This document shows positions 5,976-55,916 of a stretch of 64,000 bases of DNA, one piece after another. Within the stretch, counting starts at the first letter, position 1. Every line of letters begins with the position of its first letter. The DNA comes from Rhodoferax sp. (GTDB lineage: Bacteria > Pseudomonadota > Gammaproteobacteria > Burkholderiales > Burkholderiaceae_C), in assembly GCA_030697375.1 (NCBI GenBank), contig JAUYQD010000071.1, positions 27,088 to 91,087 of the forward strand, given 5' to 3'. A model generated the notes under the pieces. It searched no databases. It was not told the DNA's origin and saw only the letters and a program-made list of their open reading frames with translations. Position numbers and translations under genes: made by a program.

Positions 5976-6788
5976 TTACCTCTGGAGCTGCGCTGTAGCA
6001 CTGGCGTGCAGGCAAATCGCGGCGGCGGCGGCCACGTTGAGCGACTCCTCTCCGCCGGGCTGCGCAATGCGCACATGCAGCTGGGCCATCGCCTCCAACT
6101 CGGAACAAACACCCTGCCCTTCGTGCCCCAGCGCCCATGCGCACAGCGTAGGCAGCTCCTTAGTTTGCAGCGCCTGGTGCAAAAATGAGCCCCGATGCGA
6201 GCTGGTTACAAGAATCGGCAACGCCAGTGCTGCCAAATCCGGCAGCTCCACACCTTCGGTGAGCTGCAAGCCCCAATGGGCCCCCATGCCGGCGCGCAGC
6301 ACCTTGGGGCTCCACAGGGCGGCCGTTCCCTTGAGGGCGATGATCTGCTTAAAACCAAAGGCCGAGGCACTGCGCAAAATGGAGCCGACATTGCCCGCAT
6401 CCTGCACGCGGTCCAAAATGACGGAGGCCATGGCAGGCTGTAGCGCGGCTGCATTGGGCAAATTCACCACAAAACCCATGCTGGCGGGTGACTCCAGACC
6501 ACTGATATCACGGAACAGTGCGTCCGGAATCACTATGTTTTTAATAGCTGCTTGCGCCCAATCTACGGGGGCTAAAGGCCTGGACTTGGGGTTTTGCCAA
6601 AATGACTCGGAAAAAACGCCGACTTCGGGCTGCACACCCCGCACCATCGCCGCACGGCACAGGTGGTCACCCTCGGCCCAAAAACGGCCCTGCTTGCGGT
6701 ATGCGGTGTTGTCCTGTGCCAGCCGGCGCAGGTCCTTCAAAAAGGCATTGTCCCGCGAGGTGATGTGCTGGGCTGGAGCGGCACTCAT
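5976..6788 (-). CDS. TrmH/SpoU-family RNA methyltransferase
   Basis: [18 protein letters not shown] and [18 protein letters not shown] motifs. Confidence 0.92.
6130..6171 (-). repeat. Dispersed 42-bp spaced motif, copy inside the TrmH-family CDS
   Basis: GCTGC AAACTAA GGAGC TGCCTACGCT GTGCGCATGG GCGCT; exact spacing, but the most divergent copy. Confidence 0.55.
6532..6573 (+). repeat. Dispersed 42-bp spaced motif, copy inside the TrmH-family CDS (antisense)
   Basis: ACTAT GTTTTTA ATAGC TGCTTGCGCC CAATCTACGG GGGCT. Confidence 0.85.
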
Positions 6789-7420
6789 CGCAAGACCTCC
6801 GCCACGGGGCGAAAAGTTTTTCGATGCTGGGGGCAGGCGCCGTGCAACTGCAGCGCCGCCAGGTGTTCGGCCGTCCCATAACCCTTGTGTTTGGCAAAAC
6901 CATATTGGGGAAATTGCAGGTCGTACTCAGCGCACCAGCGGTCGCGGGTGACCTTGGCCAGAATAGACGCGGCGGAAATGGCAGGCACCAGCGCATCGCC
7001 TTGGACAATGGCCTCGGCCCGCACGTCCAGCACCGGCAGGCGGTTGCCATCAACCTGCACCAGTTTGGGTTTGAGTCGCAGCCCTTCCACCGCCCGGCGC
7101 ATGGCCAACAGAGTGGCTTGCAAAATATTCAGCTGTTCAATTTCTTCAACACTGGCCTGTGCAATGGAGCAGCACAGCGCCTTGGCGCAGATTTCGTCAA
7201 ACAACTTTTCGCGCCGCAAGGCGGTGAGTTTCTTGGAGTCTGCCAATCCTTTGATGGGCTGGAGATCGTCCAGAATCACGGCAGCGGCTACCACAGGCCC
7301 AGCCAGCGGACCGCGCCCGGCCTCGTCGACACCCGCGACGAGAAGACCGGGGATGTCCCACATCAGTGCGGCTTGTTGCGTGGTGGCTGGGTCAGCCTTG
7401 GAGTACTTGCTGGATCGCAT
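6785..7420 (-). CDS. rnhB: Ribonuclease HII
   Basis: [20 protein letters not shown] and [11 protein letters not shown]; start overlaps the lpxB end. Confidence 0.96.
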
Positions 7421-8552
7421 GGGCGGCTAATTGGGGGGTATCGCGTTGAAGTTGCACATGCAACTCCGCAAACTTGTTTTGCACAAGGGTAATTTTTTCG
7501 GGATTGGACGCCTGCGCATCCAGCCATTCCAGCACCGCTGCGGCGAGTGCCTTCGGTGTGGCGGCGTCTTGCAGCAGTTCCGGCACGACAAAGTCCTGGC
7601 ATAGGATATTGGGCAATCCCACCCAGGGCTGCAATTTTTTGCGCCGCATGATCTGCCACGACAGCCAGCCCATGTGGTAGGCAATCACCATGGGCCGCTT
7701 GAACAGCGCCGCCTCCAGCGTCGCCGTTCCGCTGGCAATCAGCGTGACATCGCAAGCCGCCAGAACGGTGTGCGACTGTCCCCGAACGATCTGCACATGC
7801 TCCCACATGCCGCTGGCATGGGCGGCCATCTCAATCTGCGCGTACAGGGACGGCACCGCAGGCACTATGAATTTGATAGCTGCTTGCGCCCGTTTTATAA
7901 GGGCTGCAACCTGAAAGAACCGAAAAGCAAGGTGCTGGATCTCGGACTTCCGGCTGCCAGGCAGTATCGCGACCACGCGGTCCTCGTCGGCAAGCCCCAG
8001 CTGGGCCCGGGCTGCGGACCGGTCAGGCACCATGGGAATGACCTGGGCCAGCGGATGGCCAACGTAGGTGGACGCAATGCCGTGCTGCGCCAGCAAGGCC
8101 GGCTCAAACGGAAAGATGCACAGCACATGGTCCACACTGCGGCGGATTTTTTCGACGCGCTCAGGGCGCCAGGCCCAGACCGAGGGCGAGACAAAATGGA
8201 CAGTCTTGATGCCCTGCATCTTCAGTGCGGCCTCCAGATCCAGATTGAAATCCGGGGCGTCGACCCCGATAAACACATCAGGACGTTGCAGCAACAGCCG
8301 GGCCTTGAGTTGCTCGCGTATGCCTACGATTTCACGGTAACGGCGCAACACCTCCCAGCCATAACCGTGCACAGACAAAGTGTCATGCGGCCACCAGGAT
8401 GCAAAGCCGCGCCGATTCATCTGCGGGCCACCGATTCCCACGGCTGTCGCAGACGGCCAGCGTGCACGCAAGCCGTCCAGCAGCAGTCCGGCCAGCAAGT
8501 CGCCCGACGCTTCACCTGCCACCATCGCCAGTTTGACTACGTCGTTCGACAC
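7392..8552 (-). CDS. lpxB: Lipid-A-disaccharide synthase
   Basis: [24 protein letters not shown] and SGTATLE motifs. Confidence 0.97.
7864..7905 (+). repeat. Dispersed 42-bp spaced motif, copy inside lpxB (antisense)
   Basis: ACTAT GAATTTG ATAGC TGCTTGCGCC CGTTTTATAA GGGCT. Confidence 0.85.
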
Positions 8553-8558
8553 GTCAAA

Positions 8559-9353
8559 TCAACGCACGATGCCACGCTGGGGCGAAACTTGGGATAAAAA
8601 CGACTGCATCATCTCCACATCGGGCGCGGCCTCAGGAATACTGAGCGTCAACTCTGCGATACGCACGCGTGCAGCTTCCAGTGTCAGGTCGTCGCGGTAC
8701 AGTGCCTTGTGCATGGCTTTGACGGCAGCAATGCGTTCCGGCGAAAAGCCACGGCGACGCAAGCCTTCAAAGTTCATGGAACGTGCTTGCGCGGGCTGGC
8801 CCTGGCACATCACGAAGGGAGGAAGATCGGCAAACAGCAAAGTGCACATGGCCGTCATGCTGTGGGCACCGATTTTCACAAACTGGTGCACCACGGTGAA
8901 GCCCCCCAAAATCGCCCAATCCCCCACATGCACATGGCCTGCCAGCTGGGAGTTATTGGCAAAAATAGTGTTGTTGCCCACCACACAGTCGTGGGCCAGA
9001 TGTACATAGGCCATCAGCCAATTGTCGTTCCCCACGCGTGTAATACCTGTGTCACCGGGAGAACCGATGTTGAAGGTGCAAAACTCGCGGACCGTATTGC
9101 GGTCTCCAATGATCAGCTCGCAGGGTTCACCCGCGTATTTTTTGTCTTGCGGAATTGCCCCCAACGAACTGAATTGGAAAATCCGGTTGTCTGCACCAAT
9201 GGTGGTGTGGCCTTCAATCACGCAGTGCGGACCAATGGTGGTGCCGGGGCCCACCTTGACGTGCGGCCCAATCAGCGTATAGGGCCCTACCGTCACCGAG
9301 CTGTCCAACTCGGCTCCAGCGTCCACAATCGCGGTGGAGTGAATCGTGGTCAC
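8559..9353 (-). CDS. lpxA: UDP-N-acetylglucosamine acyltransferase
   Basis: Hexapeptide repeats, PQDKKY and HLAHDC; GTG start. Confidence 0.97.
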
Positions 9354-11368: not shown

Positions 11369-13668
11369 TAGAAAGTTGTCCCAATTTGAAATTGCATGCT
11401 CTGAATTTTATCGCTATCGAACTGTTTGATGGGTCTGGCAAAGGCCAATCGCAAAGGGCCCACTGGTGAAATCCAGCTGATCCCCACGCCGAACGAACTG
11501 CGCATATCCCCCAATTGAATGGCTTCGTCGGCACCATAAATACCGCCAGCATCCACAAAGCCATACATGCGTAGGGTTCGGTCATTGCCACCACCCGGCA
11601 GGGGGGAAAGCAACTCTGCATTGAAGTTTATTTTTCTCGACCCACCGGTTGCCGTAGGAACGGCCTGAAGCCGCTGCGCACCGGTGGTCAAACTCCCCTG
11701 TTCAAACCCGCGAACCGAACCCAATCCACCGGAGTAGAAATTCTTGAACACCGGGTAAGAGGTGCTGGCGGTACTCGCCCCCAAAGACAACTCTGCGTTG
11801 AACGCAGCAGTCACCTTTTTCGAAATGGGGAAAAATTGCTGGTACTGTGCAGTGCCACGCGCGTAGCGCAATTCACCGCCCACACTCCACTCACCCGAGG
11901 TGCGCATCACCTTGCCCACGCTGGGAACCAAGGCGCTGTCCCGTGTGTCACGCGCCCAGCCAATGGTTAATGGAACCGCATTGGTGGTGAAACCAAACTC
12001 ATTGGTGAAATCCTGGTACACCGTCGGCAACAATGTGCCGGGCACCACAGTCGTGCGGTCTACACCGCCCCCCACATACACCGTGTCGGTATCGGTGAAG
12101 GGAATGCCAAAACGCATACTCGCGCCGGTGGTCTCGATGGAATAGCTGTCCAGGTCTACATAGGGTTTGGAATTTCTTTGGTAGAGGTCAATCGTTCGGG
12201 AAACACCATCATCGGTAAAGTAAGGATTGGTGGTATTGAAAACGATGGTTCTATTGACCTTGCTCGTATTCACTTCCATACCCAACGAATTGCCTGAGCC
12301 AAACGCATTGTCTTGCTTGAATCCAAACGTAAAGCCCAATCCTTCGCCACTGGAAAGACCAGCGCCCAAGCTCAAGCTTCCCGTGGGCTTTTCCGCGACA
12401 GTAACTGTCAAGTCCACCTGATCGGGTGATCCTGCGACCTCGTGCGTTTCCAAAGATACTTCTTTGAAATAACCCAGGCGATCGACCCGATTGCGGGATT
12501 GGCGAATTTTTTCGCCGTCATACCAGGCTGCTTCCAATTGGCGGAACTCACGGCGAATCACTTCGTCACGGGTACGGTCGTTTCCTGCCACATTGATTCG
12601 GCGAACATACACACGGCGCGAGGGGTCTGCGCGTAAAGTGATTTCCACACGGTTGCTCGTCCGATCCATTTGAGGAACCGCCTCCACCCGTGCAAATGCA
12701 AAACCAAAGTTGCCAAAGTAGTCGGTAAACGCCTTGGTAGTTTGGGCCACCTGGTCTGCGTTGTAGGCTTCACCGGCCTGAATGGAGATCAATGACTGGA
12801 ACTCTTCGTCCTTGCCAAGGTAATTGCCCGCAAGCTTGATCTTTGAAACTACAAACCGCTCCCCCTCAGTCACATTGATGGTGATGCTGATGTCTTGCTT
12901 ATTCGGGGAAATAGCGACTTGTGAGGAATCCACCTTGAACTCCAAATAACCTCTGGCCAAGTAGTAAGAGCGCAAGGTCTCAATATCCGCATTCATTTTG
13001 GTGCGGGAATACCGGTTGGATTTGGTGTACCAGGTGAGCCAACCGCCCGTGTCCTGGTCAAAAAGACCACGCAATGTGGACTCTGAAAAAGCCTTGTTTC
13101 CCACGATGCGGATGTCGCTGATTTTTGCAGTATCGCCCTCCACCACCGCAAAACTCAAATTCACCCGGTTGCGATCGATAGGGGTCACCGTGGTGATGAC
13201 CTCAGCAGCGTACATGCTGCGATTGATGTACTGGCGCTTGAGCTCTTGCTCAGCCCGGTCCACCAGCGCTTTGTCAAACGGCCGACCATCTGCCAATCCA
13301 ATATCCCGCAAGGCCTTTTTCAACACCTCTTTGTCAAACTCTTTCGTGCCCGAAAAATCCACATCGGCAATGGTGGGGCGCTCTTCTACGATCACCACCA
13401 ACACGCCGGAATTCGCCTCAATACGAACGTCCTTGAACAAACCCAGGCCAAACAGTGCCCTGATGGAGGCTGCAGCTTTTTCATCGCTGTATGTGTCGCC
13501 CACCTTGACGGGCATGGAGGCAAAAATCGTTCCCGCCTCAACCCGCTGCAGCCCTTCCACACGGATATCGCGCACCGCAAAGGGCTCCAATGCCCACGCA
13601 GAATGCACCGCCAAAACAACCGCAGAAGCACAAAAAGTTCTGTGCAGAAAAGTACGACTAAATTGCAT
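11368..13668 (-). CDS. bamA: Outer membrane protein assembly factor BamA
   Basis: POTRA repeats (DIRVEGLQRVE), VRGFEQG loop and terminal FQIGTTF. Confidence 0.97.
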   Translation of the reverse strand: MQFSRTFLHRTFCASAVVLAVHSAWALEPFAVRDIRVEGLQRVEAGTIFASMPVKVGDTYSDEKAAASIRALFGLGLFKDVRIEANSGVLVVIVEERPTIADVDFSGTKEFDKEVLKKALRDIGLADGRPFDKALVDRAEQELKRQYINRSMYAAEVITTVTPIDRNRVNLSFAVVEGDTAKISDIRIVGNKAFSESTLRGLFDQDTGGWLTWYTKSNRYSRTKMNADIETLRSYYLARGYLEFKVDSSQVAISPNKQDISITINVTEGERFVVSKIKLAGNYLGKDEEFQSLISIQAGEAYNADQVAQTTKAFTDYFGNFGFAFARVEAVPQMDRTSNRVEITLRADPSRRVYVRRINVAGNDRTRDEVIRREFRQLEAAWYDGEKIRQSRNRVDRLGYFKEVSLETHEVAGSPDQVDLTVTVAEKPTGSLSLGAGLSSGEGLGFTFGFKQDNAFGSGNSLGMEVNTSKVNRTIVFNTTNPYFTDDGVSRTIDLYQRNSKPYVDLDSYSIETTGASMRFGIPFTDTDTVYVGGGVDRTTVVPGTLLPTVYQDFTNEFGFTTNAVPLTIGWARDTRDSALVPSVGKVMRTSGEWSVGGELRYARGTAQYQQFFPISKKVTAAFNAELSLGASTASTSYPVFKNFYSGGLGSVRGFEQGSLTTGAQRLQAVPTATGGSRKINFNAELLSPLPGGGNDRTLRMYGFVDAGGIYGADEAIQLGDMRSSFGVGISWISPVGPLRLAFARPIKQFDSDKIQSMQFQIGTTF

Positions 13669-20615: not shown

Positions 20616-20771
20616 ATTGCAGGCAGGACATTCGTGCCACCAGCAAAACCCAAGGAGTATAACACGGACCAAAGCAGAAGCAGAGGTCCGTATCCCGGTG
20701 GACCACCACTGGAAATGGTCTTCATCAAACCGGTTCTACACTTCCCATTCCGCGCCTACTGGATCGATAAC

Positions 20772-21755
20772 ATGGCTTTTGCCCCCCCCGTGAAATACTT
20801 GGCCCTTGCTGGCCCCACCGCCGCAGGCAAAACGGCTGCGGCCCTGGCCATCGCACGGGCGCACCCGGTGGAGATCATCAGCGTGGACTCGGCGCTGGTG
20901 TACTGCGGCATGGACATTGGCACCGCCAAGCCCAGCACACAGGAAATGGCGGAAGTCCCCCACCATCTCATCAATATCCGAGACCCGCTGCAACCCTACA
21001 GCGCGGCGGAGTTCGTGAAAGACGCCCAATTGCTCATCAAGGACATTGCGGCGCGCGGCAAATTGCCCCTGCTGGTGGGCGGCACCATGCTGTATTTCAA
21101 GGCGCTGGCCGATGGACTCGACCCCATGCCCGCCGCCAACGCCGAAGTGCGGGCAGCACTGGAACTGGAAGCACAAGCCCACGGTTGGCCCGCCATGCAC
21201 GCCGCGCTGGCGGTGGTGGACCCGGTCACCGCAGCCCGTTTGGCACCGGCGGATAGCCAACGCATCCAGCGTGCGCTGGAGGTCTACCGACTGTCAGGCC
21301 TGCCTTTGTCACACTTTCACGCCGCCAAAAATGCTATCAAAACAGAAGCTGCTCACGCAGATTCCACGGGGGCTGGAGCCCTAATTTCATTAGAACCAAC
21401 GCAACGCAGTTGGTTACACGAGCGGATTGCCCAACGCTTTGACGCCATGCTGACCCAGGGTTTTTTGGACGAAATGCGCGCCCTGCGTGCCCGAGGCGAC
21501 CTGAATCCCGACCTGCCCGCCATGCGCTGTGTGGGCTACCGCCAGGCGTGGGAGGCGATGGATGGTGTATTTTCCATGGCCGAATTGCGCGACCGCGGCA
21601 TTTTTGCCACCCGCCAACTGGCCAAACGCCAGATTACCTGGCTGCGCTCCATGCCGCACCGCCATGTGGTGGCCTGCGATCACCCGGACGCACTGGCCCA
21701 GGTTTTGCGGCATGTGCGCGAAACCCTCAACGCCGCCCCACAACACCGCCAGTAG
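20772..21755 (+). CDS. miaA: tRNA dimethylallyltransferase
   Basis: GPTAAGKT P-loop, [14 protein letters not shown] and [11 protein letters not shown]. Confidence 0.97.
21333..21374 (+). repeat. Dispersed 42-bp spaced motif, copy inside miaA (sense)
   Basis: GCTAT CAAAACA GAAGC TGCTCACGCA GATTCCACGG GGGCT. Confidence 0.85.
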
Positions 21756-22415
21756 TTACCACAGGGTTTGCAAGGCACCATCCCACAGGCACACCCCACG
21801 CGAGGCCATGACGCGCGCCTCCGCCTCGTCATGGGTCACCAGCAGCGCAGCCATCCCGGCCGAGGCAATGCGTTGGCGGAATTCATCACGCAACTGAAAG
21901 CGAAGCTCAGCATCCAGCGCAGAAAAAGGCTCGTCCAGCAGCAACACACGCGGCTGTGTGATCAGGGCCCGCGCCAGCGCCACGCGTTGCTGCTCGCCCC
22001 CGGACAACTGCCAGACTTTGGCTTGGGCGAATGCCGCTATGCCAAAGCGCTGCAGCATGGCCTGGGCCCGCTCCCGCGCAACAGCCTTGCGCATCCCCTG
22101 CTCCACCAAACCAAAAGCCACGTTGTCCTGCACGTTGAGGTGCGGGAACAGGGCAAAGTCCTGGAACATCAGGGCAAAGCCCCGCCACTCTGGCGCCAGG
22201 GTCGTGATGTCCTGGCCGTTGAACCGCACCTGTCCAGCGTCCAGCGGCTCCAGGCCCGCCACGATCTTGAGCAAAGTGCTTTTGCCGCTGCCAGAGGACC
22301 CCAAAATCGCCACGGTATCGCCGGGATGTACGTTCAGACTCAGGTCGCGCAGCAAAACCCGTGTTTCGCCCTGGCGCGGTTGCCATTTTTTGAAAATCGA
22401 TTGCAGTTCAAGCAT
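21756..22415 (-). CDS. thiQ: ABC transporter ATP-binding protein, thiamine import (ThiQ-like)
   Basis: GSSGSGKST, LSGGEQQR and LLLDEPF; last gene of the TPP-controlled operon. Confidence 0.8.
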   Translation of the reverse strand: MLELQSIFKKWQPRQGETRVLLRDLSLNVHPGDTVAILGSSGSGKSTLLKIVAGLEPLDAGQVRFNGQDITTLAPEWRGFALMFQDFALFPHLNVQDNVAFGLVEQGMRKAVARERAQAMLQRFGIAAFAQAKVWQLSGGEQQRVALARALITQPRVLLLDEPFSALDAELRFQLRDEFRQRIASAGMAALLVTHDEAEARVMASRGVCLWDGALQTLW

Positions 22416-23997
22416 GGGAGTGCTCCTCGGGTGCGCTCCACTCGATCAGGACAAAGGCCGCCAGGGCCAAGGCCATGAGCACACAGGCCAGCACCAGCGC
22501 GGCGTCCATGTTGGCGGCGCCGGGGCGCCCCAGGTGTTCGTAGATCAGTGTGGTGAGCGTGGCCCACTCGGGGCGAGACAAAAACAGGGTGACGGCAAAC
22601 TCGCCCACGGCCGTGGCGGCGGCAAAGGCCATGCCCCGGCGCAAGGCAGGCGCCATCAAGGGCAAAGTGACGCGCCAAAAGGCACGCCACGGCGTGGCGC
22701 CCAGCGAGCGGGCCGCCGCTTGGTAGCTGACCGGCATACTGTCCAGACTGGATGCCAGCGATTTGGCGACAAAAGGATAGGCCAGGAGCGTATAGGCCGC
22801 CACCAGCAGCCAGAAACTGCCCGTCCAGGCGGGGTACAGGAGCAACAGGCCAAACGCGACCATCACCGGTGACACCACAAAGGGCAAAAACACCAGCGTG
22901 CGCAGCAGCAAGGAACGGCGTGCCGCCAAGGCATGGGCCAGACCCAGGGCGGTGGCCACCATCAGCGCCAGGGCGGAAAAGCGTGCGGTGTTCCACAGGG
23001 CGTGCAAGGTGTCTTCCTGCAGCAGAACATGCCACGCACCCGCTCCTGAAAACATAGCACGCCACGCAATCGCCATAAGGGGTGCAGCACAAAACAATGC
23101 CAAAATTGCAACACTTCCCAGCACCGCCGCCCATTGGGCGGCACCTTGGGGAGAGCGGCGCGCCACCCGGTCCGCACGCACCGGCGTGGCCAGCCGTTGC
23201 TCGATGGCGGCGTAGGCCAAGGCCACCAGGGCGGTCAGGACCAGCATCCACAACGCCAGCACCCCCGCTTGTGCCAACTGCAGTTCATGCGCCACCAGCG
23301 TGTAGATTTCGACTTCGGCGGTCGCGTATTCCTGGCCGCCCAGCACCAGCGCCAGGCCAAAGCCGGAAAAGCAGTACAAAAACACCAGGCACAGCGCCGA
23401 CATCAACCACGGGGCGATAGCGGGCCATTCCACCCGCCAAAACGCGCGCCACGGGGTGGCGCCCAGGGTGCGCGCTGCGGCCACACGCGCCGCACTCACC
23501 TGGCCCAGCGCGTCGGTGGCGGCGCGCACCAGCACACACAGATTGAAGAACAAATTGCCATACAACAGCAGCCACGGCGTGCCTTGCAAGTCGGGCCCAC
23601 CCCATTGCACCAGCAGCCCATGCGGCCCCATCAAGGCCAACACCCCCATGGCCGCGACCAGCGTGGGCACCACAAAGGGCAGCATCAGGCCGCGCAAGAT
23701 CAGGGTGCGGCCCGCAAAGTCAAAGCGCGCCAACACCCAGGCCACCGGCAAGCCCAACAGCAGGGACGCAACGCACGTCGCGCCCGCCTGCAAAAACGAC
23801 CAGGCCATGCGCCAGCGCAAATAGGGGTCTTGCCACGGCGCCCAGACCGCACTCCAAACGCCCTGCCCGCCTGGCACGCCCTCCCAGCCCTGCGCTACCA
23901 GCCGCACCGCAGGCGCCACCAGCACCACCAGCAAAAAGACCAGTGGCAGGAGCGCCAGGGCATGGGGCGCTACGGCGCAGCGTATGCGCGCCAGCAT
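22408..23997 (-). CDS. thiP: ABC permease, duplicated ThiP/FbpB type
   Basis: Two EAA-like loops (AAARTLGATPWRAF, AAARSLGATPWRAF); start approximate. Confidence 0.82.
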   Translation of the reverse strand: MLARIRCAVAPHALALLPLVFLLVVLVAPAVRLVAQGWEGVPGGQGVWSAVWAPWQDPYLRWRMAWSFLQAGATCVASLLLGLPVAWVLARFDFAGRTLILRGLMLPFVVPTLVAAMGVLALMGPHGLLVQWGGPDLQGTPWLLLYGNLFFNLCVLVRAATDALGQVSAARVAAARTLGATPWRAFWRVEWPAIAPWLMSALCLVFLYCFSGFGLALVLGGQEYATAEVEIYTLVAHELQLAQAGVLALWMLVLTALVALAYAAIEQRLATPVRADRVARRSPQGAAQWAAVLGSVAILALFCAAPLMAIAWRAMFSGAGAWHVLLQEDTLHALWNTARFSALALMVATALGLAHALAARRSLLLRTLVFLPFVVSPVMVAFGLLLLYPAWTGSFWLLVAAYTLLAYPFVAKSLASSLDSMPVSYQAAARSLGATPWRAFWRVTLPLMAPALRRGMAFAAATAVGEFAVTLFLSRPEWATLTTLIYEHLGRPGAANMDAALVLACVLMALALAAFVLIEWSAPEEHSHA

Positions 23998-24017
23998 CAC
24001 ACCCGGCAAATGGGGTC

Positions 24018-25052
24018 TTATTTCAACACCACCTTGGTCCAGCGGGCCAGCCATGCCGCGCCTTTGTCCGCCAGGTCTTTGTCGCTGGGGTTGTCAAATG
24101 CAGCGGGCTCGGGAGCGAACTTCATCGCCTCGGCGCGGGCCACGCCCTGCTCCGCCGGGAACATCCACATTTCCGTTTGCATTTGCTGCTGCACCGGGGA
24201 CGAACGCATGAATTCGATGAATTTTTCGGCTGCAGCGCGTTCCTTGCCACCCTTGACCAAGGCCACACCCTCTACCTGGCGGAACACGCCGCCGGGCAAA
24301 GACAGGCTGGCGGTGGGCGGCTCGGTGAGTTTTTCCTTGCTGTAAAACAGTTCAGCAGCGGGGCTGGTGGCGTAGCTGACCACCAACGGATGTTTGCCTC
24401 CATTGCGGCTGAACTCGGTGTAATAGGCCTCGCTCCAGCCTTTGGCCACTTTCACGCCGTTGGCGCGCATGCGGGCCCACCAGTCAAATGCCTTCTCCTC
24501 GCCCATGCCGCCCACCGTGGCCAGCATGAAGGCATAACCTGGGCTGGACGTCGCTGGGTTTTGCACTACCAAAAGCTTGGCGTAAGCGGGCTGGACCAGG
24601 TCTTCCAGTGTCTTGGGCAGGGCCAAGCCGCTTTTGGCAAACCAGGCCTTGTCATAGTTGAGGGTGACGTAGCCGTAGTCCACCGGAATCAGACCGGTAG
24701 GCAATGGCACAACGGCGGCGCGGCTTGCGGCGGGGCCGGTGTACGCCTCCAGCACATCGGCGGCCAGCGCTTTGGGCGCCAGCGCATTGTCGATCCCATA
24801 CACCACATCGCCAATGGGGTTGGCGCGGGTCAGGATGAGCTTGTTGAGCATTTCACCGGCATCGCCCGCCTTGGTGATGCGCAAAGTGATGCCAGTGTCC
24901 GCCTCGAATTGTTTCAGCAGGGGTTTGGGTACCGCGAAGGAGCTGTGGGTCAGCACTCGGAGTTCCGTGGCGGCGTGGGCCGTGGAGAGGGTGGAAGCCA
25001 CCACAAGACTGGCGCACGCAGTGCCCAGAAAAGAAAAAATCCCGTGTTTCAT
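24018..25052 (-). CDS. thiB: Thiamine ABC transporter substrate-binding protein
   Basis: Signal peptide, THSSF, PVDYGYV, NPATSSPG, GWSEAYY and VSYATSP; downstream of a TPP riboswitch. Confidence 0.9.
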   Translation of the reverse strand: MKHGIFSFLGTACASLVVASTLSTAHAATELRVLTHSSFAVPKPLLKQFEADTGITLRITKAGDAGEMLNKLILTRANPIGDVVYGIDNALAPKALAADVLEAYTGPAASRAAVVPLPTGLIPVDYGYVTLNYDKAWFAKSGLALPKTLEDLVQPAYAKLLVVQNPATSSPGYAFMLATVGGMGEEKAFDWWARMRANGVKVAKGWSEAYYTEFSRNGGKHPLVVSYATSPAAELFYSKEKLTEPPTASLSLPGGVFRQVEGVALVKGGKERAAAEKFIEFMRSSPVQQQMQTEMWMFPAEQGVARAEAMKFAPEPAAFDNPSDKDLADKGAAWLARWTKVVLK

Positions 25053-25130
25053 GCAATGCTCTCTTTCAATGCGCCAAGGGCAGGACGCATGAAAATCAGA
25101 ACCGCATAAACACAGGGACTGGATTCATCA

Positions 25131-25212
25131 CACTTCCTACGCTGGCATGACCCAGATCAGGTTCATGGGGTATCTCTCAGTCCGCCGCTTGGCGGGCACC
25201 CCCGGTGAAAGC
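25131..25212 (-). promoter_or_regulatory. TPP riboswitch
   Basis: Minus strand GGGGTGC...CTGAGAGATACCC...GAACCTGATCTGGGTCATGCCAGCGTAGGAAG, the canonical THI-box. Confidence 0.96.
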
Positions 25213-25267
25213 AGGATTGTAGGGGTCGAACGGGTAGACAGCTGCGGGGCGCAATCTGCCCCAGCTT

Positions 25268-30767: not shown

Positions 30768-30809
30768 GCTACTTAATTGATAGCTTCCTACGCTTTATTT
30801 TAGAGGGCT
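30768..30809 (+). repeat. Dispersed 42-bp spaced motif, intergenic copy upstream of the ABC exporter
   Basis: GCTAC TTAATTG ATAGC TTCCTACGCT TTATTTTAGA GGGCT. Confidence 0.85.
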
Positions 30810-30878
30810 GGTGGTCAATTTGACTCCTATTCTCCGAATCAACTTGCATCGCCCAAAATTCGCCCCATGTAGACCCCC

Positions 30879-32654
30879 ATGACCACTGAACGCGCCAAAT
30901 CCCAGAATCCCAAGTCTCTCTCCGGCCTGTTGCCGTTCTTGCGGCCCTATCGCGCGCATATTGGTCTCACTCTGGTGCTTTTGGTTCTGGCCGCGGTAGC
31001 CACTTTGGCTTTTCCAATCGCCCTGCGCAGTCTCATCGACAGCGGACTGGTGCAGTCTGACAAAGGTGCGCAAGTGATGGCTTTGCGGGACCACTTTGCC
31101 ATCTTGTTTGCAGTGGCGGTCGCGCTGGGCCTGTTTTCTGCGGGGCGCTTTTACATGGTGAGCTGGTTGGGTGAGCGCGTCACGGCCGACCTGCGCAATG
31201 CCGTCTACAGCCACGTGCTGGAACAAAGCCCGGAGTTTTTTGAAACCACACAGACGGGTGAAGTCCTTTCGCGTCTAACCGCCGACACCACCTTGGTGCA
31301 AACCGTAGTCGGATCCTCCCTGAGCATGGGCTTGCGCAACAGCGTCATGGGACTGGGGGCGCTGGCCATGCTGGTGTGGACCAATCCGCTGGTGATGTTC
31401 CAGGTGCTCTTGGTGCTGGTGCTGGTGGTGGTGCCTAGCCTGTGGTTTGGACGGCGGGTGCGCAAACTCTCCCGCGCCAGCCAGGACCGGGTGGCCGACT
31501 CCAGCGCCATCGCCGCCGAGGTGCTCAACGCGATTCCCGTGGTGCAAAGTTACACCGCCGAAGGGCGCGAGGCACAGCGCTTTACCACCTCAACCGACAA
31601 CGCGTTCGATACGGCAGTACGGCGGACCCGCGCCCGCGCGGTATTGGTGGCATTCATCATCATTGCCACCTCGGCAGCCCTGCTGTGGGGCCTGTACCAG
31701 GGCACGCAGGCGGTGATGGCCGGGCGCATCACCGCAGGGCACCTGGGACAAACGGTGGTCTACGTCATTATTTTGGCCAGCGCCTTTGCTATTCTGGGCG
31801 AGGTGTATGGCGATCTGTTGCGCGCGGCCGGGGCCACCGAACGGCTAATGGAACTGCTGGGCACCCGCTCCCCCATTACTTCACCGTCAAATCCGGCGCT
31901 AGCCCCCGTGCCTGTTGCGGGAAGCGCTATCAAATTCGAAGCAATTCAATTCAACTACCCCTCACGGCCGCTGCTCCCGGCTCTGTCCGAGTTTTCGCTG
32001 GACATTCAGCCTGGACAAACGGTGGCCATCGTGGGGCCCAGCGGAGCGGGTAAAAGCACGGTTTTTCAGTTGCTGTTGCGGTTTTACGATCCCCAATTCG
32101 GGCGCATTGTGCTCGACGGCGTAGGTACCCGAGACATGTCCCTTGGTGAGTTGCGCCACCGCATTGGCATCGTTCCGCAGGACGCCGTGATTTTTTCCAG
32201 CAGTGCCCTGGAAAACATTCGCTACGGAAAACCCGAGGCTACGGATAAGGAGGTCATGGTGGCGGCCCAAGCTGCTTTTGCCCATGAATTCATCACCGCC
32301 CTGCCCGAAGGCTACAACACCTTTTTGGGGGAGCGCGGTTTACGCCTGTCTGGCGGACAGCGCCAACGCATTGCTATTGCCCGGGCCATGCTGAAGAACC
32401 CACCGCTGCTTCTGCTCGATGAAGCCACCAGTGCACTGGACGCCGAAAGCGAGCGCATGGTGCAGGCAGCCCTGGAATCGGCCATGCGTAACCGCACCAC
32501 CTTGGTCATTGCCCACCGGCTGGCCACGGTACAAAAAGCCGATTGCATTGTGGTGCTGGACCATGGCAAGTTGGTGGAGCAAGGTACCCATGCTGAATTG
32601 GTGGCGCGGGGAGGCGTCTATGCAGGTCTGGCGGCGCTCCAATTCAATGCTTAG
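30879..32654 (+). CDS. MsbA-related fused ABC transporter (TMD + NBD)
   Basis: Six TM helices, GPSGAGKST, LSGGQRQR and LLLDEATSALD. Confidence 0.93.
   Translation: MTTERAKSQNPKSLSGLLPFLRPYRAHIGLTLVLLVLAAVATLAFPIALRSLIDSGLVQSDKGAQVMALRDHFAILFAVAVALGLFSAGRFYMVSWLGERVTADLRNAVYSHVLEQSPEFFETTQTGEVLSRLTADTTLVQTVVGSSLSMGLRNSVMGLGALAMLVWTNPLVMFQVLLVLVLVVVPSLWFGRRVRKLSRASQDRVADSSAIAAEVLNAIPVVQSYTAEGREAQRFTTSTDNAFDTAVRRTRARAVLVAFIIIATSAALLWGLYQGTQAVMAGRITAGHLGQTVVYVIILASAFAILGEVYGDLLRAAGATERLMELLGTRSPITSPSNPALAPVPVAGSAIKFEAIQFNYPSRPLLPALSEFSLDIQPGQTVAIVGPSGAGKSTVFQLLLRFYDPQFGRIVLDGVGTRDMSLGELRHRIGIVPQDAVIFSSSALENIRYGKPEATDKEVMVAAQAAFAHEFITALPEGYNTFLGERGLRLSGGQRQRIAIARAMLKNPPLLLLDEATSALDAESERMVQAALESAMRNRTTLVIAHRLATVQKADCIVVLDHGKLVEQGTHAELVARGGVYAGLAALQFNA
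31901..31942 (-). repeat. Dispersed 42-bp spaced motif, copy in the ABC TMD-NBD linker (antisense)
   Basis: GCTTC GAATTTG ATAGC GCTTCCCGCA ACAGGCACGG GGGCT. Confidence 0.8.
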
Positions 32655-48940: not shown

Positions 48941-49025
48941 TGGTGCCGTCGGCGAGACTCGAACTCGCACAGCTTTCGCCACTACCCCCTCAAGATAGCG
49001 TGTCTACCAATTTCACCACGACGGC
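48941..49025 (-). tRNA. tRNA-Leu(GAG)
   Basis: 85 nt with GCCGTCG/CGACGGC acceptor stem, CTATC-TTGAGGG-GGTAG anticodon arm, long variable arm, GTTCGAG T-loop and encoded CCA. Confidence 0.97.
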
Positions 49026-49524: not shown

Positions 49525-50265
49525 TTATTGGGCTGCAGCGATGATGGATAAAAAATCTGCCGCCTTGAGGGACGCACCGCCCACCAAACCGCCGTCGATG
49601 TCGGCTTGCGACAACAACTGCACAGCATTCGCCGCGTTCATGCTGCCGCCATACAAAATATGCACCCGATCTGCCTGCGCGCTGGCGGCACGCAGCTGCG
49701 CACGCAGCACAGCATGGACCTGCTGCGCCTGCACGGGACTGGCAGTCTTGCCGGTACCAATTGCCCACACCGGCTCATACGCCACCACAATTTCACTGAT
49801 GCAATGTCCATTGGCATGAATGACTGCCGCCAATTGGCGCTTGACAACCTCTTCGGTACGACCTGCTTCGCGTTCCGCCAGGGTTTCTCCCACACACACA
49901 ATGGGCGTAATGCCAGAAGCCAACGCCCGCTGGGCCTTGGCAGCCACCACCGCGTCGGTTTCGCCGTGGTATTGACGACGCTCGGAGTGACCAACAATGG
50001 CGTACCGAGCACCGCAATCTTGCAGCATGCTGGCAGACACCTCCCCAGTGAACGCACCCGATTCATGCTGCGACACATCTTGCGCACCCAGATCAATACC
50101 AGTGCCGGCAACCAGGCCCCGAACCTGGGCCAAGTAAGGCGCAGGCACACACACCGCAACCAAACATTGCCAGTCGGACGAGCCACTGAGCAAGGCCTGC
50201 ACCAGCGCTGCATTGGACGCAGCCGATCCGTTCATTTTCCAGTTTCCAGCGATCAACTTTTTCAT
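49525..50265 (-). CDS. tpiA: Triosephosphate isomerase
   Basis: [25 protein letters not shown] and LVGGASL. Confidence 0.98.
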
Positions 50266-51257
50266 GCTGTCTCCCATGTCAAAACTATTTTTCCTACGTG
50301 CTGATTGGATTCCATCAGAGCATGGGCGCGCGATGCGTCCCCGGCCGCGAACACGCTGTGCACCACCGGTTTGATGCGTCCTGCTGCAATCAGGGGCCAC
50401 ACCTGTTTCAGACACGCCTGCGCAATTGCTTCCTTGAAAGCAACCGGCCGCGCTCGGAGTGTGGAACCGGTAATAGTCAAACGGCGACGCAATACCAAAC
50501 CGGCATTGATCTCACTGTTTACACCACCCTGCACCCCAATAATGACCAAACGCCCATCCTCCGCCATACATGCCAACTCTTTGGCGATATAGCTGCCGGC
50601 GACCATGTCCAACACAACGTCAACCCCACGGCCATCCGTTAAACGCAGAACTTCCGTTTGAAAGTCGTGCGTCTTGTAATTGATGGCGTGATCTGCGCCC
50701 AATGCCAGGCAAGCCGTGCATTTTTCATCGCTGCCTGCCGTGGCAATCACGATGGAACCCCGCGCTTTTGCCAACTGGATAGCCGTCACGCCGATGCCAC
50801 TGCTGCCGCCTTGCACCAGCAAGGTTTCACCGCTTTGCAGCGCACCTCGGTCAAACACATTGCTCCAGACGGTGAAAACCGTCTCGGGCAAACTGGCCGC
50901 CTCGACGTCGCTCAACCCCTCTGGCACCGGCAGGCATTGCGCGACCGGAGCAACGCAGTACTCTGCGTAGCCGCCACCCGCCACCAAGGCACATACACGG
51001 TCGCCCACTTTGAGCCCTGCCCGTTGGAGTGCATCCACATCGCCAGCCACCACGGTGCCGGCCACTTCAAGGCCAGGAATGTCCGACGCACCGGCAGGTG
51101 CAGGGTAATGCCCGGCACGCTGTAATACGTCAGGACGGTTGATGCCGCTGGCACCCACCCGAATACATACCTCCCCTGCGCCCGCCACGGGCACATGCCG
51201 TTCTCCCAGACGCAAAACGTCTGGGCCGCCAAAAGAGGTGATTTCGATAACTTTCAT
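50262..51257 (-). CDS. NAD(P)H-quinone oxidoreductase (zeta-crystallin/PIG3 type)
   Basis: [17 protein letters not shown] and GSTLR. Confidence 0.92.
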
Positions 51258-51273
51258 CGTAGTTTCAACCGAC

Positions 51274-51315
51274 AGCCCGCACTGCGCTTGCGCAGGCAGC
51301 TATCGATTTACTAGC
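51274..51315 (-). repeat. Dispersed 42-bp spaced motif, intergenic copy between pnp and the quinone oxidoreductase
   Basis: GCTAG TAAATCG ATAGC TGCCTGCGCA AGCGCAGTGC GGGCT. Confidence 0.82.
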
Positions 51316-51327: not shown

Positions 51328-53445
51328 TCAAGAATGGTCGTTGGACTGTGCAGGACGGTCCAGCAAGGCTTTCATGGACAGCTTGATGCGGCCTTTTTCG
51401 TCCGTTTCCATGACCTTGACCTTGACGATCTGGCCTTCGGACAGGTAGTCGGTAACCTTCTCGACGCGCTCATGGGCAATCTGGCTGATGTGCAACAAAC
51501 CGTCTTTGCCTGGCAACAGATTAATCAAGGCACCGAAGTCCAGAATCTTGGTCACAGGGCCTTCGTAGACCTTGCCGATTTCCACTTCCGCGGTGATCTG
51601 CTCGATGCGGCGCTTGGCTTCCTCGGCCTTGGCAGGATCGGCAGACGCGATGGTGATGGTGCCATCTTCCTCGATGTTGATCTGGGTGCCGGTTTCTTCG
51701 GTCAACGCACGGATCACGGCGCCGCCCTTGCCGATCACGTCACGGATCTTCTCGGGGTTGATCTTCATGGTGAACAGGCGCGGTGCAAAGTTGGACACTT
51801 CGGTCTTGGCCTCACTCATCGCCTCTTGCATCTTGCCCAGGATGTGCATGCGCGCCTCCTTGGCCTGGGCCAAAGCGACTTGCATAATTTCCTTGGTGAT
51901 GCCCTGGATTTTGATGTCCATCTGCAGCGCAGTAATACCGTTGGTGGTACCGGCCACCTTGAAGTCCATGTCACCCAAATGGTCTTCGTCACCCAGGATG
52001 TCGGTCAACACCGCAAAGCGGTTGTCTTCCTTGATCAGACCCATGGCAATACCCGCCACGTGCGCCTTCATGGGCACACCAGCGTCCATCAAGGACAGGC
52101 AGCCGCCACAGACGGAAGCCATGGACGAAGAGCCATTGGACTCGGTGATTTCCGACACCACACGCATGGTGTAAGGGAAGTCTTCCTTGTTCGGCAACAC
52201 GGCAACCAGTGCGCGCTTGGCCAAACGGCCATGGCCAATTTCACGGCGTTTCGGGGTCCCAACGCGGCCGGTTTCGCCGGTGGCGAAGGGAGGCATGTTG
52301 TAGTGCAGCATGAAGCGGTCTTCGTACTCGCCGCTCAAAGCGTCGATACGCTGTGCATCACGCTCGGTGCCCAAGGTGGTAACAACCAAAGCCTGGGTTT
52401 CACCCCGGGTGAACAAAGCAGAACCGTGGGTGCGTGGCAACACGCTGTTGCGGATTTCGATGGCGCGCACGGTGCGGGTGTCGCGGCCGTCGATGCGGGG
52501 CTCACCGGCCAGAATCTGGCTGCGCACGATCTTGGCTTCGATGTCGAACAACATGCCTTCAACGGCAACGCTGTCGAATGCGGCGCCTTCTGCCTTCAAG
52601 GCAGACATGACTTCCGAGTACGCAGCGCGGCAAGCCTGGGTGCGGGCTTGCTTGTTGCGGATTTGGTAAGCCGCAGCCAGCTTTTCGCCAGCCAATGCGC
52701 CAACCTTGGCGATCAGTGGTTCGTCCTTGGCAGGGGCTTTCCAGTCCCACACGGGTTTGCCCGCATCACGCACCAATTCATGGATCGCGTTGATGGCGAT
52801 GTTGCCTTGCTCATGGCCGAACACCACGGCGCCCAACATGATTTCTTCCGACAGCTGCTGGGCTTCACTTTCCACCATCAGCACAGCCGCTTCGGTACCT
52901 GCCACGACCAGATCCATGATGGAACCCTTGCGTGCGGTCTGACCGGGGTTGAGCACGTACTCGCCATTGACGTAACCCACGCGGGCTGCACCAATGGGGC
53001 CGTTGAATGGCACACCGCTGACGGACAACGCAGCACTGACCGCGATCAAGGCGGCGATATCGGCATCCACTTCAGGATTCAAGGACAAGGTGTGCACCAC
53101 GACGTGCACTTCATTGAAGAAACCTTCGGGGAACAGCGGACGGATGGGGCGGTCGATCAGGCGGCTGGTCAGGGTTTCGAATTCGCTGGGGCGGCCTTCG
53201 CGCTTGAAGAAGCTGCCGGGGATCTTGCCTGCGGCGTAGGTCTTTTCAAGGTAATCCACGGTCAAGGGGAAGAAGTCTTGGCCCGCTTTGCCTTCGGTCT
53301 TGGCAACCACGGTGGCCAGCACCACGGTGCCATCCATGTCCAACAGCACGGCGCCGGTGGACTGACGGGCGATTTCGCCGGTTTCCATGGTGACCGTGTT
53401 TTGGCCCCATTGGAAGGTCTTGCTAACTTTATTGAAAATTGTCAT
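51328..53445 (-). CDS. pnp: Polyribonucleotide nucleotidyltransferase
   Basis: [19 protein letters not shown] and DMDFKVAG, with KH and S1 domains. Confidence 0.99.
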
Positions 53446-53949: not shown

Positions 53950-54022
53950 ATTTAAAACTTGCGCTTATTGCTGGAACTGCCTTAAGCGTGCGCCTTGCGG
54001 GATGCAAAGCCGCTCGATTATA
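53950..54022 (-). promoter_or_regulatory. rpsO promoter -10 and structured leader
   Basis: TATAAT at 54017-54022, then a GCAA-tetraloop hairpin and a CGCTTA/TAAGCG stem before the RBS. Confidence 0.55.
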
Positions 54023-54053
54023 GCCCGATCCACTCCGCGCACCCACGGCCCCA

Positions 54054-55373
54054 TCAGGGGCGCTGCATCTTGCAGGTGGTTGCCTGCTCCGCGGCGGCGG
54101 CAGCAATGCTCTTGACCACGCGAAAGCCGTAACCCGAGCCTTCCACGTCGAACTTCACACCGGGCGTCCCCGCCCTGTCCATCACTCCCACCACCAAAGG
54201 CTGCTGAAACTGGTGGTCGGCCGCGCGCATGGCACCGGATTGACCACCAAAAGTGACGTTAGCCCGCTCCAGCTGTGCGCCAACAGCTACCAAATCCATA
54301 GCATCGGCTGGGACTGAACTGGCGCCTTGCTTGCCCGCACCGTCAATGGCCTGCGCCAGCGACTCCACCATCAACTGCATGCGCATGTGCACGTAGTCGT
54401 CGGCGCTCTGGGGGTAACGCACCCGAAACGATTTGTAAAACGCCTCGCTGGCGGGGGTCTGCACATTGGGCAACCAGTCGGCCACGGCCACCACCTTGCC
54501 CACGCCCGCGTCGCCGATGGCGGCGGGTGCGCCCAGCGCATTGCCGTAGAAGGTGTAGAACTTGCCGTCATAGCCCGCGTCTTTCGCCGCTTTGATCAGC
54601 AAGGTCAAATCATTGCCCCAGTTGCCGGTGATGACGGCCTGCGCGCCACTGGCCTTGATTTTGGCGGCATAGGGCAAAAAGTCTTTCACCTTGGCCATGG
54701 GGTGCAGCTCTTCGGCGGCAATCTGCACATCGGGGCGCTGCAACCCCAGCTGGCGCTTGGCCTCGCCCAACACGGCTTTGCCAAAGCTGTAGTCCTGCCC
54801 GATCAGGTACACACTTTTGAGCGCCTTGTCGTCCTTGACCACGTCCATCAATGCGGCCATGCGCATGTCGGCATGGGCGTCAAAACGAAAATGCCAAAAG
54901 CTGCATTTCTCGTTGGTCAGCGCCGGGTCTACCGCCGAATAGTTCAGAAAAATCACCCGTTTGCCCGGCTCACGCTCGTTGTGTTTGTTGATGGCATCGA
55001 TCAGAACGCCGGCCGTGGCCGACGAATTGCCCTGCAAAATGAAACGCGCGCCGTTGTCGATGGCCGAACGCAAAGCAGACAGCGCCTCTTCGTTGAGGCC
55101 TTTGCTGTCAAACCGCTCCAACACCAGCGGCTGGGCGCCACCCGCCGCACCGAAGGGCTTGACACCGCCCCGCGCGTTGACGCGTTCCACCGCCCACGCC
55201 AGGTTGCGGTACACCGCCTCCCCGGCATTGCCGGTCGGGCCGCTCAAGCCCTCAATCATGGCCAGTTTGATCCCGGTGGGCGCCGTCTGTGCGAAGGCTG
55301 TAGAGACCGCCAAAGCTGCGGCAAATAGCGCCGCAGCGCCCGATTTCAAGACCTGGGAATGAAGAATAAACAT
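54054..55373 (-). CDS. Branched-chain amino acid ABC-type periplasmic binding protein (LivK/J fold), standalone
   Basis: Signal peptide, NYSAVDP, QDYSFG and ITGNWGNDL; no permease genes adjacent. Confidence 0.88.
54261..54302 (-). repeat. Dispersed 42-bp spaced motif, copy inside the binding-protein gene (sense)
   Basis: GCTAT GGATTTG GTAGC TGTTGGCGCA CAGCTGGAGC GGGCT. Confidence 0.75.
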
Positions 55374-55467
55374 GCTGAAATTTCTCTTGAAATGAGAGGG
55401 AAGAGACGCAGCTTCTGTCCATGCGGCGCTCAATGTGAGAGCCGCGCAGTGTACTAGGAGTCACACC

Positions 55468-55857
55468 ATGTTTTTCGCTACCGCCCCCTCCCCCCTGTCC
55501 TCTGGTTTGCGTCGCCAGGCCTATGCACATGCGGGCCGCACGGTGGACCGTTTTCTGGACGATGCCCTCTGCTCCGCCCGCCAACAAGGGGCGGCCTACA
55601 CGCAGGACGACACAGCCTTCACCCTGACGCTGGACATGCCCGGCATCGCCAAAGACCAGTTGAGCATCGCGATTGAAGGCGCCGTGGTGCGCATCAGCAG
55701 CAAAGAAGGTGCGCCGCGCCGCTACCGTGCCGCCTACGAGCTGCCCCAGGATGTGGACACGACCCAGAGCGAAGCCAAGCTGGAAAACGGCGTATTGACG
55801 CTGAAATTGGCCAAAAAAGTCCCGGTGAAAAACAGCACCGAGTTGCCGATTCAGTAA
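55468..55857 (+). CDS. Hsp20/alpha-crystallin small heat-shock protein
   Basis: LTLDMPGIAKDQLSIAIEG and AKLENGVLTLKL; AGGAG RBS. Confidence 0.92.
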   Translation: MFFATAPSPLSSGLRRQAYAHAGRTVDRFLDDALCSARQQGAAYTQDDTAFTLTLDMPGIAKDQLSIAIEGAVVRISSKEGAPRRYRAAYELPQDVDTTQSEAKLENGVLTLKLAKKVPVKNSTELPIQ

Positions 55858-55874
55858 AGAAGCCAGCAGCAGGC

Positions 55875-55916
55875 GCTCTCATTTTAGGAGCTGCCCGCGC
55901 TTATTCCACAAGGGTT
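55875..55916 (+). repeat. Dispersed 42-bp spaced motif, intergenic copy between convergent hsp20 and tsaD
   Basis: GCTCT CATTTTA GGAGC TGCCCGCGCT TATTCCACAA GGGTT. Confidence 0.82.

Follow-up and report, generated by a model that had tools for sequence, protein, structure and literature searches.

This analysis concerns a dispersed DNA element of about 68 bp with copies in a 64,000-nucleotide stretch from Rhodoferax sp. (GenBank assembly GCA_030697375.1, contig JAUYQD010000071.1, forward-strand positions 27,088 to 91,087). The whole stretch is called the window below, and its numbering is used unless another sequence is named. The element has a sharply bounded anatomy of fixed geometry and the character of duplex DNA, overprints protein-coding genes without indels and in two reading frames, is conserved at orthologous positions and is lost from genomes in an all-or-none manner. 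Judged from these sequence features, it is very probably a signal on double-stranded DNA that is read by a protein and maintained in place. A drive of the uptake-signal type, with biased DNA uptake as the driving process, is proposed tentatively as the specific form of this reading. The element is real, widespread and apparently undescribed. Its most surprising property is that a 68-bp specification lies over housekeeping genes in two frames and is conserved across genera.

Anatomy and duplex character of the element

The first-pass annotation, made from the window alone, described a 42-bp motif in at least nine copies, inside and between genes, with the consensus GCTAY-N7-RTAGC-TGCYYRCGCN-N10-GGGCT. 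With up to three mismatches, this consensus matched eight of the nine loci, and no match was obtained in 100 dinucleotide-preserving shuffles of the window. A hidden Markov model (HMM) built from the nine copies returned exactly those nine, with the next match at an E-value of about 1, although this test is circular. When the model was built from six copies, the held-out copies at 6532 and 7864 were recovered at E-values of 5e-6 and 7e-6, and the held-out copy at 6130 was recovered weakly (E 0.05). An independent HMM, built solely from 118 metagenome copies with none from the window, recovered seven of the nine at E < 1e-4 (range 1e-11 to 8e-5); it did not find the copy at 6130 at E of 1 or below. 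By these scores, seven of the window copies are solid, the copy at 31901 is marginal and the copy at 6130 doubtful. The shuffles and the held-out and independent models establish the family as real and rule out chance as its source. The positions named as invariant are invariant in the nine copies, and copies do lie both inside and between genes (six of the nine are intragenic).

The metagenome copies were collected by scanning metagenome contigs with the pattern GCTAY-N7-RTAGCTGC-NN-GCGC-N11-GGGCT, which gave at least 120 loci with 124 copies. Of the matches listed, 118 copies had flanks long enough to compare, and these flanks all differ from one another. In the alignment of these 118 copies the unit spans position -3 to about +64 relative to position 1 of the first-pass consensus, or ~68 bp, and its edges are sharp, the information dropping to zero on both sides of -3 and +64. 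The unit consensus is a.tT-GCTAY-(AT-rich 7)-RTAGCTGCTTGCGC-a..tt..ac..-GGGCT-AGAGGCC-.AWWW.g.C....AAA. The length of 42 bp given by the first-pass annotation was inaccurate and corresponds to the 5' two-thirds of the unit. The parts of the element are a 17-bp GCTA-N9-TAGC dyad on an AT-rich centre, the core GCTGCTTGCGC, a GGGCT-AGAGGCC block and A/T tracts that roughly follow the helical phase. The tracts lie at positions -3 to 0, 6-11, 27-31 (weak), 51-54 and 61-65, with a modest periodicity peak near 10.5-11 bp.

A secondary set of 84 further copies, taken from the flanks of the metagenome loci and not chosen by exact pattern, served as an unbiased sample. These copies carry ~54 bits of information. 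Spacing is fixed: 81 of the 84 have no indel, and MAFFT placed 45 of them in 70 gap-free columns. The frequent spacer indels that the first-pass annotation had named as evidence against the motif were not found. Its description of the spacers as constant in length and free in sequence held for the length only, since N7 is AT-rich and N11 is semi-conserved with lineage- or genome-specific "dialects". Copies inside one genome nevertheless differ in spacer sequence. The density in bacteria of the Rhodoferax/Polaromonas type is about 1 copy per 8-10 kb, and about one further copy per 10 kb was found around the metagenome loci.

The dialects sit in low-information positions. Locus L164, which has 6 copies within 13.8 kb, reads TTTGGTAGC..ACGGGGGCTGGAGGCC, for example, whereas L167 has the tail CAAAAAGGCTTGAAAC and L207 shows ACATTCCACG. 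A possible dialect string for other Comamonadaceae is GCTGCTAGCGC.

The counts for pair 5/13 of the dyad were T-A 44, C-A 34, T-G 29 and C-G 11, with no covariation. Only ~60% of the unbiased copies allow pairing at 4/14 and 5/13, and a GGAGC variant of the arm is common and never compensated. RNAalifold predicted 0 pairs, and the z-score of the minimum free energy (MFE) of folding was about -1 on both strands. Rfam, searched at the gathering threshold on the window and at an E-value threshold on two loci with canonical copies, gave no match at any copy; nothing was returned beyond a TPP riboswitch, a tRNA and a single match that is spurious. The strongest dependency by mutual information was between the adjacent positions 52-54, which read AAA or TTT, that is, an A-tract of either polarity; this AA/TT equivalence is a feature of duplex shape. 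Because there is no covariation, no predicted pair, no Rfam match and an A-tract of either polarity, the element appears to be read as double-stranded DNA and not as RNA. A hairpin was ruled out by the mutual information, the pair counts, the MFE z-scores and RNAalifold. The first-pass annotation had favoured recognition of duplex DNA by a protein over an RNA hairpin or recent copy-paste, and this view is supported by the absence of covariation and of RNAalifold pairs, by the differing spacers and by coding copies that arose by substitution; the reader would be a protein.

Overprinting of genes and distribution among genomes

In the wider set, intragenic copies were called with a simple codon-usage open reading frame (ORF) caller. 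They comprise 27 of the 124 primary copies (among the matches listed) and 24 of 81 secondary copies, together 51/205 or 25%. The coding copies are confined to two reading frames in 48 of 51 cases. One frame accounts for 29 of the 30 antisense copies, reading ..A-Q-A-A-[I/T]-x-x-[I/V]-A, and one for 19 of the 21 sense copies, reading A-[T/I]-x-x-[I/V]-A-A-[C/R]-A..G-A, so that the permitted frames encode Ala-rich peptides. Among intergenic copies, convergent gene pairs are over-represented (46) and divergent pairs under-represented (16), and tandem intergenic contexts contain 33 antisense and 21 sense copies.

The lpxB site is gapless in the alignment of LpxB with E. coli LpxB (PDB 5W8S), and lpxB segments from 63 related genomes also align without gaps, element carriers reading GCT ATY AAA TTY ATA GT where the others read GCC GTC CGC TTC GTC GT. 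Synonymous sites were computed after protein-guided extraction, which worked for lpxB only (for the spoU gene just 2 loci passed). In 53 genomes that have the element ("haves"), third-codon entropy was 1.02 inside and 1.49 outside the element, and GC content at third codon positions was 0.38 inside and 0.70 outside. The corresponding values in 26 "have-not" genomes were 1.46 and 1.40 for entropy and 0.66 and 0.70 for GC content. The peptide at the site is nearly the same in both groups (have-not consensus AAaLiqqaRPAiqFvV). By these measures, the lpxB signal overlies a pre-adapted peptide, mostly by synonymous changes to rare AT-rich codons, and it is kept at the same codons across genera.

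Other sites also kept their length. MiaA of the window, compared with P. aeruginosa MiaA (PDB 3CRM), has no insertion at the site and is 3 residues shorter there. Of 1056 comparisons with element-less orthologous sites, which stem from a few site classes only, 992 (94%) show 55-85 nt where the element would be, and a single one shows 15 nt or less. Insertion into genes was ruled out by the PDB alignments, the gapless orthologues and the empty-site lengths. Coding copies thus arise by substitution, with protein length unchanged.

Two unusual arrangements were seen elsewhere. Upstream of folD (L024 19144-19213 and its orthologues), the head and GCTGCTTGCGC form a partial element that is joined to a Rho-independent terminator (CGCCCG..CGGGCGTTTTT), and in genomes without the element family the palindromic head decays stepwise at the same place. 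In L146 (6092-7014), three copies lie within 900 bp. On the opposite strand each overlaps the 5' end of a small ORF, which begins with MSFKKNQPVALVKQAQAAIKEE.. and has AGGAG in front of it; these small ORFs are paralogues in tandem, and the reverse strand of the element encodes their N-termini.

The presence of the element was scored with the independent model in 80 syntenic loci around lpxB from Rhodoferax, Polaromonas, Curvibacter and other Comamonadaceae. Of these, 53 carry 1-5 copies and 27 carry none. Most of the copies share syntenic sites, which are located in lpxB, in the gene of the SpoU family and, downstream of greA, in a gene for a small membrane protein; the last of these sites falls just beyond the window, and no training set included it. 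Presence did not follow GC content (r=0.04 among the lpxB loci), which was thereby ruled out as a cause of presence or absence. In a neighbour-joining tree of LpxB, the 27 have-nots fall into at least 5 or 6 separate groups nested among the haves. Independent sites thus vanish together repeatedly, which implies that upkeep depends on a trans-acting factor that lineages can lose. No gene separating haves from have-nots was found within the syntenic 21 kb. A search with the LpxB protein toward Verminephrobacter or Acidovorax returned close Rhodoferax-type relatives only and did not reach beyond Rhodoferax, Polaromonas and Curvibacter.

At one syntenic site ~7.5 kb upstream of lpxB in Polaromonas-type loci there is a weak, conserved look-alike (GCTATCATTTCAAGAGCGTCTTGCGC..GGGTT, E 0.04-0.8; L024 at ~2449, L044 at ~2451, L050 at ~2305, and others), which may be a nascent or decaying copy.

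In PLSDB the consensus matched only 3 records, nor did it match any phage record of relevance. The Comamonadaceae OS-4 plasmid pOS401 (AP026971.1; L208-L210) has 0 copies in positions 1-150000, and the chromosome of the same strain (L077) has syntenic copies. pOS401 is a phage- or conjugative-like plasmid in which BLAST gave a single place, near 211.4 kb. A linear record of 31.9 kb from Rhodoferax antarcticus, labelled "plasmid unnamed1" (NZ_CP019241.1; L207), has nine copies, ~1 per 3.5 kb. The genes around these copies include pabB, an ABC transporter, toxin-antitoxin genes, Fic and IS1634, and the record resembles a piece of chromosome more than a plasmid. Six viral-labelled contigs in IMG/VR (L081-L086) have exact matches, two of them with a second copy; these may be host flanks or prophages.

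Possible roles: uptake signal, chromosomal site or selfish DNA

Among the roles suggested by the first-pass annotation, a signal that accumulates by point mutation in the manner of an uptake sequence fits best, in view of the substitution-born coding copies and their two frames, and it is preferred with some reserve. A trans-acting factor would read the ~68-bp, fixed-geometry signal on double-stranded DNA. Copies would not be pasted; base substitution would create and keep them wherever the local sequence tolerates them, that is, in intergenic DNA, with gene 3' ends preferred, and in coding DNA in two frames. Competent cells would preferentially take up and recombine conspecific DNA bearing the signal, better-matching alleles would spread, and the signal would build up genome-wide. 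Once the receptor or competence was lost, all copies would decay. Such a signal might be the first family of its kind outside Pasteurellaceae and Neisseriaceae, with a 68-bp composite architecture that would be unprecedented.

The genomes that carry the uptake signal sequence (USS) of Pasteurellaceae or the DNA uptake sequence (DUS) of Neisseriaceae are ~2 Mb in size, and extended uptake signals are about 30 bp long. The Haemophilus USS has flanking A/T tracts, a likeness to the element. USS and DUS are present in hundreds to thousands of copies (1,471 to 1,892 per genome), 35-65% of them in ORFs and with a reading-frame bias, and they sit at poorly conserved residues and are absent from genes without homologues in relatives (PMC2817400). 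The element resembles them in its genome-wide over-representation in both orientations and in its indel-free, substitution-born coding copies, which occupy preferred frames at tolerant residues (PMC2817400, PMC3630211). An excess near gene 3' ends and lineage dialects are also common to both. Scarcity in foreign DNA may be as well, to judge by pOS401, PLSDB and the phage records, whereas the nine copies in L207 point the other way. Apart from the norms of size and density and the mixed evidence from foreign DNA, the element would pass for an uptake signal in every genomic respect tested. Sporadic loss of competence is described in PMC1626085. Within the Comamonadaceae, Verminephrobacter eiseniae undergoes natural transformation that depends on type IV pili; its uptake is apparently sequence-selective, and no signal for it is known (PMC4212676).

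Several observations weigh against uptake. The known uptake signals have cores of 9-12 bp at ~1 per kb, whereas the element has ~68 bp and ~54 bits at ~1 per 10 kb, so that its length and information are several times theirs and its density is ~tenfold lower. The element differs from USS and DUS also in its dyad-symmetric head and in its bacterial family, and it is known here from sequence alone. The 17-bp dyad and the phased A-tracts look more like the site of a cytoplasmic dimeric or wrapping protein than like the target of a pilin. Neighbouring copies are co-oriented in 56 cases and otherwise in 32. Two intergenic copies, one upstream of carB in L017 and one in L092 compared with L087, look like gains of length, although both cases are ambiguous. 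The nine dense copies among insertion sequence (IS) and toxin-antitoxin genes in L207 suggest something unlike slow accumulation in old core DNA, unless L207 is itself old chromosomal DNA.

The main rival, itself somewhat doubtful, is that the copies are binding sites of a lineage-specific nucleoid-associated or chromosome-organising protein, kept by purifying selection, with the bound protein shaping, compacting or positioning the chromosome. The dyad head with its extra contacts, and the A/T tracts with their periodicity near 10.5-11 bp, would suit a wrapped or oligomeric complex. The conservation of intragenic copies at orthologous positions across genera, the joint loss of all copies in several clades, the lack of any copy in 150 kb of plasmid pOS401 in a strain that has the element, and the mild co-orientation of neighbours also favour such a protein. 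The sites matS (MatP), SBS (SlmA), NBS (Noc) and parS (ParB) are likewise protein-read duplex sites, often intragenic, kept at orthologous positions and served by a lineage-specific protein. These, however, are palindromes of 12-16 bp that number about 10-100 and are often restricted to a single part of the chromosome, whereas the element is an asymmetric 68-bp composite in an estimated several hundred copies per genome, and only its 17-bp dyad head resembles them. Selection would also need the strength to preserve ~25 positions per site, over hundreds of sites and in opposition to codon preference. The bias toward convergent intergenic regions is not predicted by a chromosome-organising site, though tolerance could give it.

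It is unlikely that the element is a selfish non-autonomous one, spreading by templated short-patch conversion over partly similar sequence or by intergenic insertion resembling that of repetitive extragenic palindromic sequences (REPs) or miniature inverted-repeat transposable elements (MITEs), with coding copies as by-products. Sharp edges and high information are typical of mobile repeats; positions 27-37 correlate in a sub-family fashion and there are lineage dialects. The two insertion-like intergenic cases and the high density in L207 could be read in the same way, and the all-or-none loss resembles the decay of REPINs after loss of their RAYT transposase. Set against these are the lack of terminal inverted repeats (TIRs), target-site duplications (TSDs) and hairpin constraint, and the differing spacers within a genome, which indicate no recent burst. 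No recurrent neighbour gene or transposase was found among 804 ORFs near copies, whole genomes not having been searched. Coding copies retain native residues at degenerate positions, with mostly synonymous changes on a pre-adapted peptide; 94% of the empty orthologous sites keep their length; and plasmids have almost no copies and phage records none. Quite unlikely, too, is a selfish DNA that would spread without insertion by overwriting resident DNA of equal length, through conversion or uptake-coupled drive and even in essential genes, with a dedicated reader protein that lineages would lose time and again.

Comparison with individual repeat families gave a similar picture. REPs, REPINs and bacterial interspersed mosaic elements are like the element in being hundreds of short dispersed repeats with a preference for convergent genes and a decay that follows loss of a trans-acting enzyme. 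REPs, however, lie outside genes, form hairpins upheld by compensatory changes, often come in inverted pairs and are linked to a RAYT. The element differs: a quarter of its copies (51/205) are intragenic, there is no compensation, no RNAalifold pair and no inverted pairing, and no linked RAYT was seen among the 804 ORFs near copies. The suggestion of a REP-like or recombinase core-plus-arm site finds no support, for want of hairpin constraint, TIR or TSD, extragenic restriction and, among those ORFs, a linked recombinase. A MITE was rejected because a flanking 3-mer matched in at most 8 of 118 copies at any boundary, no TIR was seen and empty sites keep their length. The Rickettsia palindromic elements also occur as in-frame repeats inside protein genes, but they insert 30-50 residues, whereas the element leaves protein length unchanged; an insertion of this type was rejected from the alignments of LpxB and MiaA to their PDB homologues, which show none at the site. 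BRE is a dispersed repeat of Bordetella and Comamonadaceae that is sometimes found in coding sequence (Hot et al. 2011, PMC3110155). Unlike the element, it is ~90 bp long, has 69% GC and is often tandem (TTTTTTGGCCGCGGGCCGCCCAAGGC...), and its published sequences have no core string in common with the element. BRE is reportedly most abundant in Polaromonas JS666, with 29 copies (PMC3110155, Table 2); at none of the syntenic sites does that genome (L066) carry the element. Like the element, the oligonucleotide signals HIP1 (of cyanobacteria), Chi and KOPS have come by substitution to overlie both coding and non-coding DNA, but they are octamers, and Chi and KOPS are strand-polarised relative to replication. 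Literature searches for the core strings gave no relevant paper, and those on REP/RAYT or uptake sequences in Comamonadaceae found nothing describing the element.

It is very unlikely that the element serves as the operator for some ordinary transcription factor, of the LysR type for example, that controls a large regulon. GCTA-N9-TAGC does fit T-N11-A, and the central CTAT-N7-ATAG of the OxyR-type consensus is resembled by the dyad. Divergent promoter regions are depleted and convergent 3' ends enriched (16 versus 46), a quarter of the copies are intragenic in both orientations, and conservation extends beyond the dyad over 68 bp in hundreds of copies per genome, all of which speak against an operator. 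A check by eye against consensus sequences for promoters, sigma-54, IHF, Fis, ArgR, Lrp, OxyR and the DnaA box found none that fits beyond the generic T-N11-A. Extremely unlikely is a structured RNA (a small RNA, an untranslated-region element or a terminator) or an artefact of chance or codon usage: the head can form a short hairpin, the MFE z-score is slightly negative and the partial copy upstream of folD is fused to a genuine terminator, but there is no Rfam match, no RNAalifold pair and no compensatory change, and coding copies are similarly numerous in sense (21) and antisense (30).

Should the element prove to be an uptake signal, it would add a third, independent family to the known ones, whose length it exceeds several times, and would do so in bacteria that abound in fresh water, soil and glaciers. 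Uptake specificity and molecular drive would become testable in a new system, and the sequence-selective transformation in Verminephrobacter could be explained. If it is instead an architectural site, it would point to a chromosome-organising protein not yet known. In either case, ~20 codons of housekeeping genes are held to a non-coding specification across genera, mostly via rare synonymous codons, and analyses of codon usage and selection are affected by such overprinting. The all-or-none loss in at least 5 or 6 clades is also a ready phylogenetic profile for the reader protein.

Element copies and neighbouring genes in the window

Three of the intragenic copies in the window are sense and three antisense, and their host genes have full-length Pfam matches. 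E-values given for copies below are those of the independent HMM. The SpoU-family RNA methyltransferase gene (5976..6788, minus strand; PF00588, E 4e-26) hosts two copies. One, at 6532..6595 on the plus strand (core 6532-6573, tail AAAGGCC..), is antisense to the gene (E 1e-11) and is kept at the orthologous position in related genomes. The other, the doubtful copy at 6130..6171 on the minus strand, is sense, has 3 mismatches to the first-pass consensus and is in a reading frame different from that of the other sense copies; a similar weak match is present in L001. Compared with other orthologues, the SpoU-family genes of the window (6528-6600), L001 and L008 (around 11956-12060) have an extra 18 nt (6 codons) adjoining the element copy.

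The lpxB gene (7392..8552, minus strand; PF02684, E 9e-93; PDB 5W8S, E 2.5e-78) hosts an antisense copy at 7864..7927 on the plus strand (E 1e-10). A full-length copy at 21333..21396 (plus strand, E 1.5e-9) is sense within miaA (20715..21755, plus strand; PF01715; PDB 3CRM, E 5e-100). An intergenic copy at 30768..30831 (plus strand, E 3.5e-6) lies between a gene for a PALP-family enzyme (29617-30699) and an ABC exporter gene (30879-32654). The exporter gene itself contains the weak copy at 31879..31942 (minus strand, antisense, E 0.07), referred to above by its position 31901. This copy falls where a linker joins the membrane and ATPase domains of the exporter (..LAPVPVAGSAIKFEA) and shares the reading frame of the other antisense coding copies.

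The remaining three copies lie further along the window. The copy at 51252..51315 (minus strand, E 1.7e-6) is intergenic between pnp (51328-53445) and a zinc-type dehydrogenase gene (50262-51257), and its tail covers the start codon of the latter. The copy at 54239..54302 (minus strand, E 3e-6) is sense within a gene for a Peripla_BP_6 periplasmic binding protein. The copy at 55875..55938 (plus strand, E 8e-5) is intergenic between the convergent genes for Hsp20 (55468-55857) and tsaD (55928-56983).

No copy was found in the ORF run at 8.5-20.5 kb downstream of lpxB, nor in a 14-kb stretch of minus-strand ORFs at ~34.5-48.9 kb that, from ORF sizes only, may be the nuo operon. A tRNA-Leu (GAG) gene (48941-49025, minus strand) is directly downstream of this run. 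The TPP riboswitch mentioned above (25116-25213, minus strand; Rfam RF00059, 65.8 bits) is directly upstream of three minus-strand ORFs (24018-25052, 22408-24054 and 21756-22415), which are likely a thiamine ABC importer operon. ORF 21756-22415, the only one of the three that was scanned, has an ABC ATPase domain.

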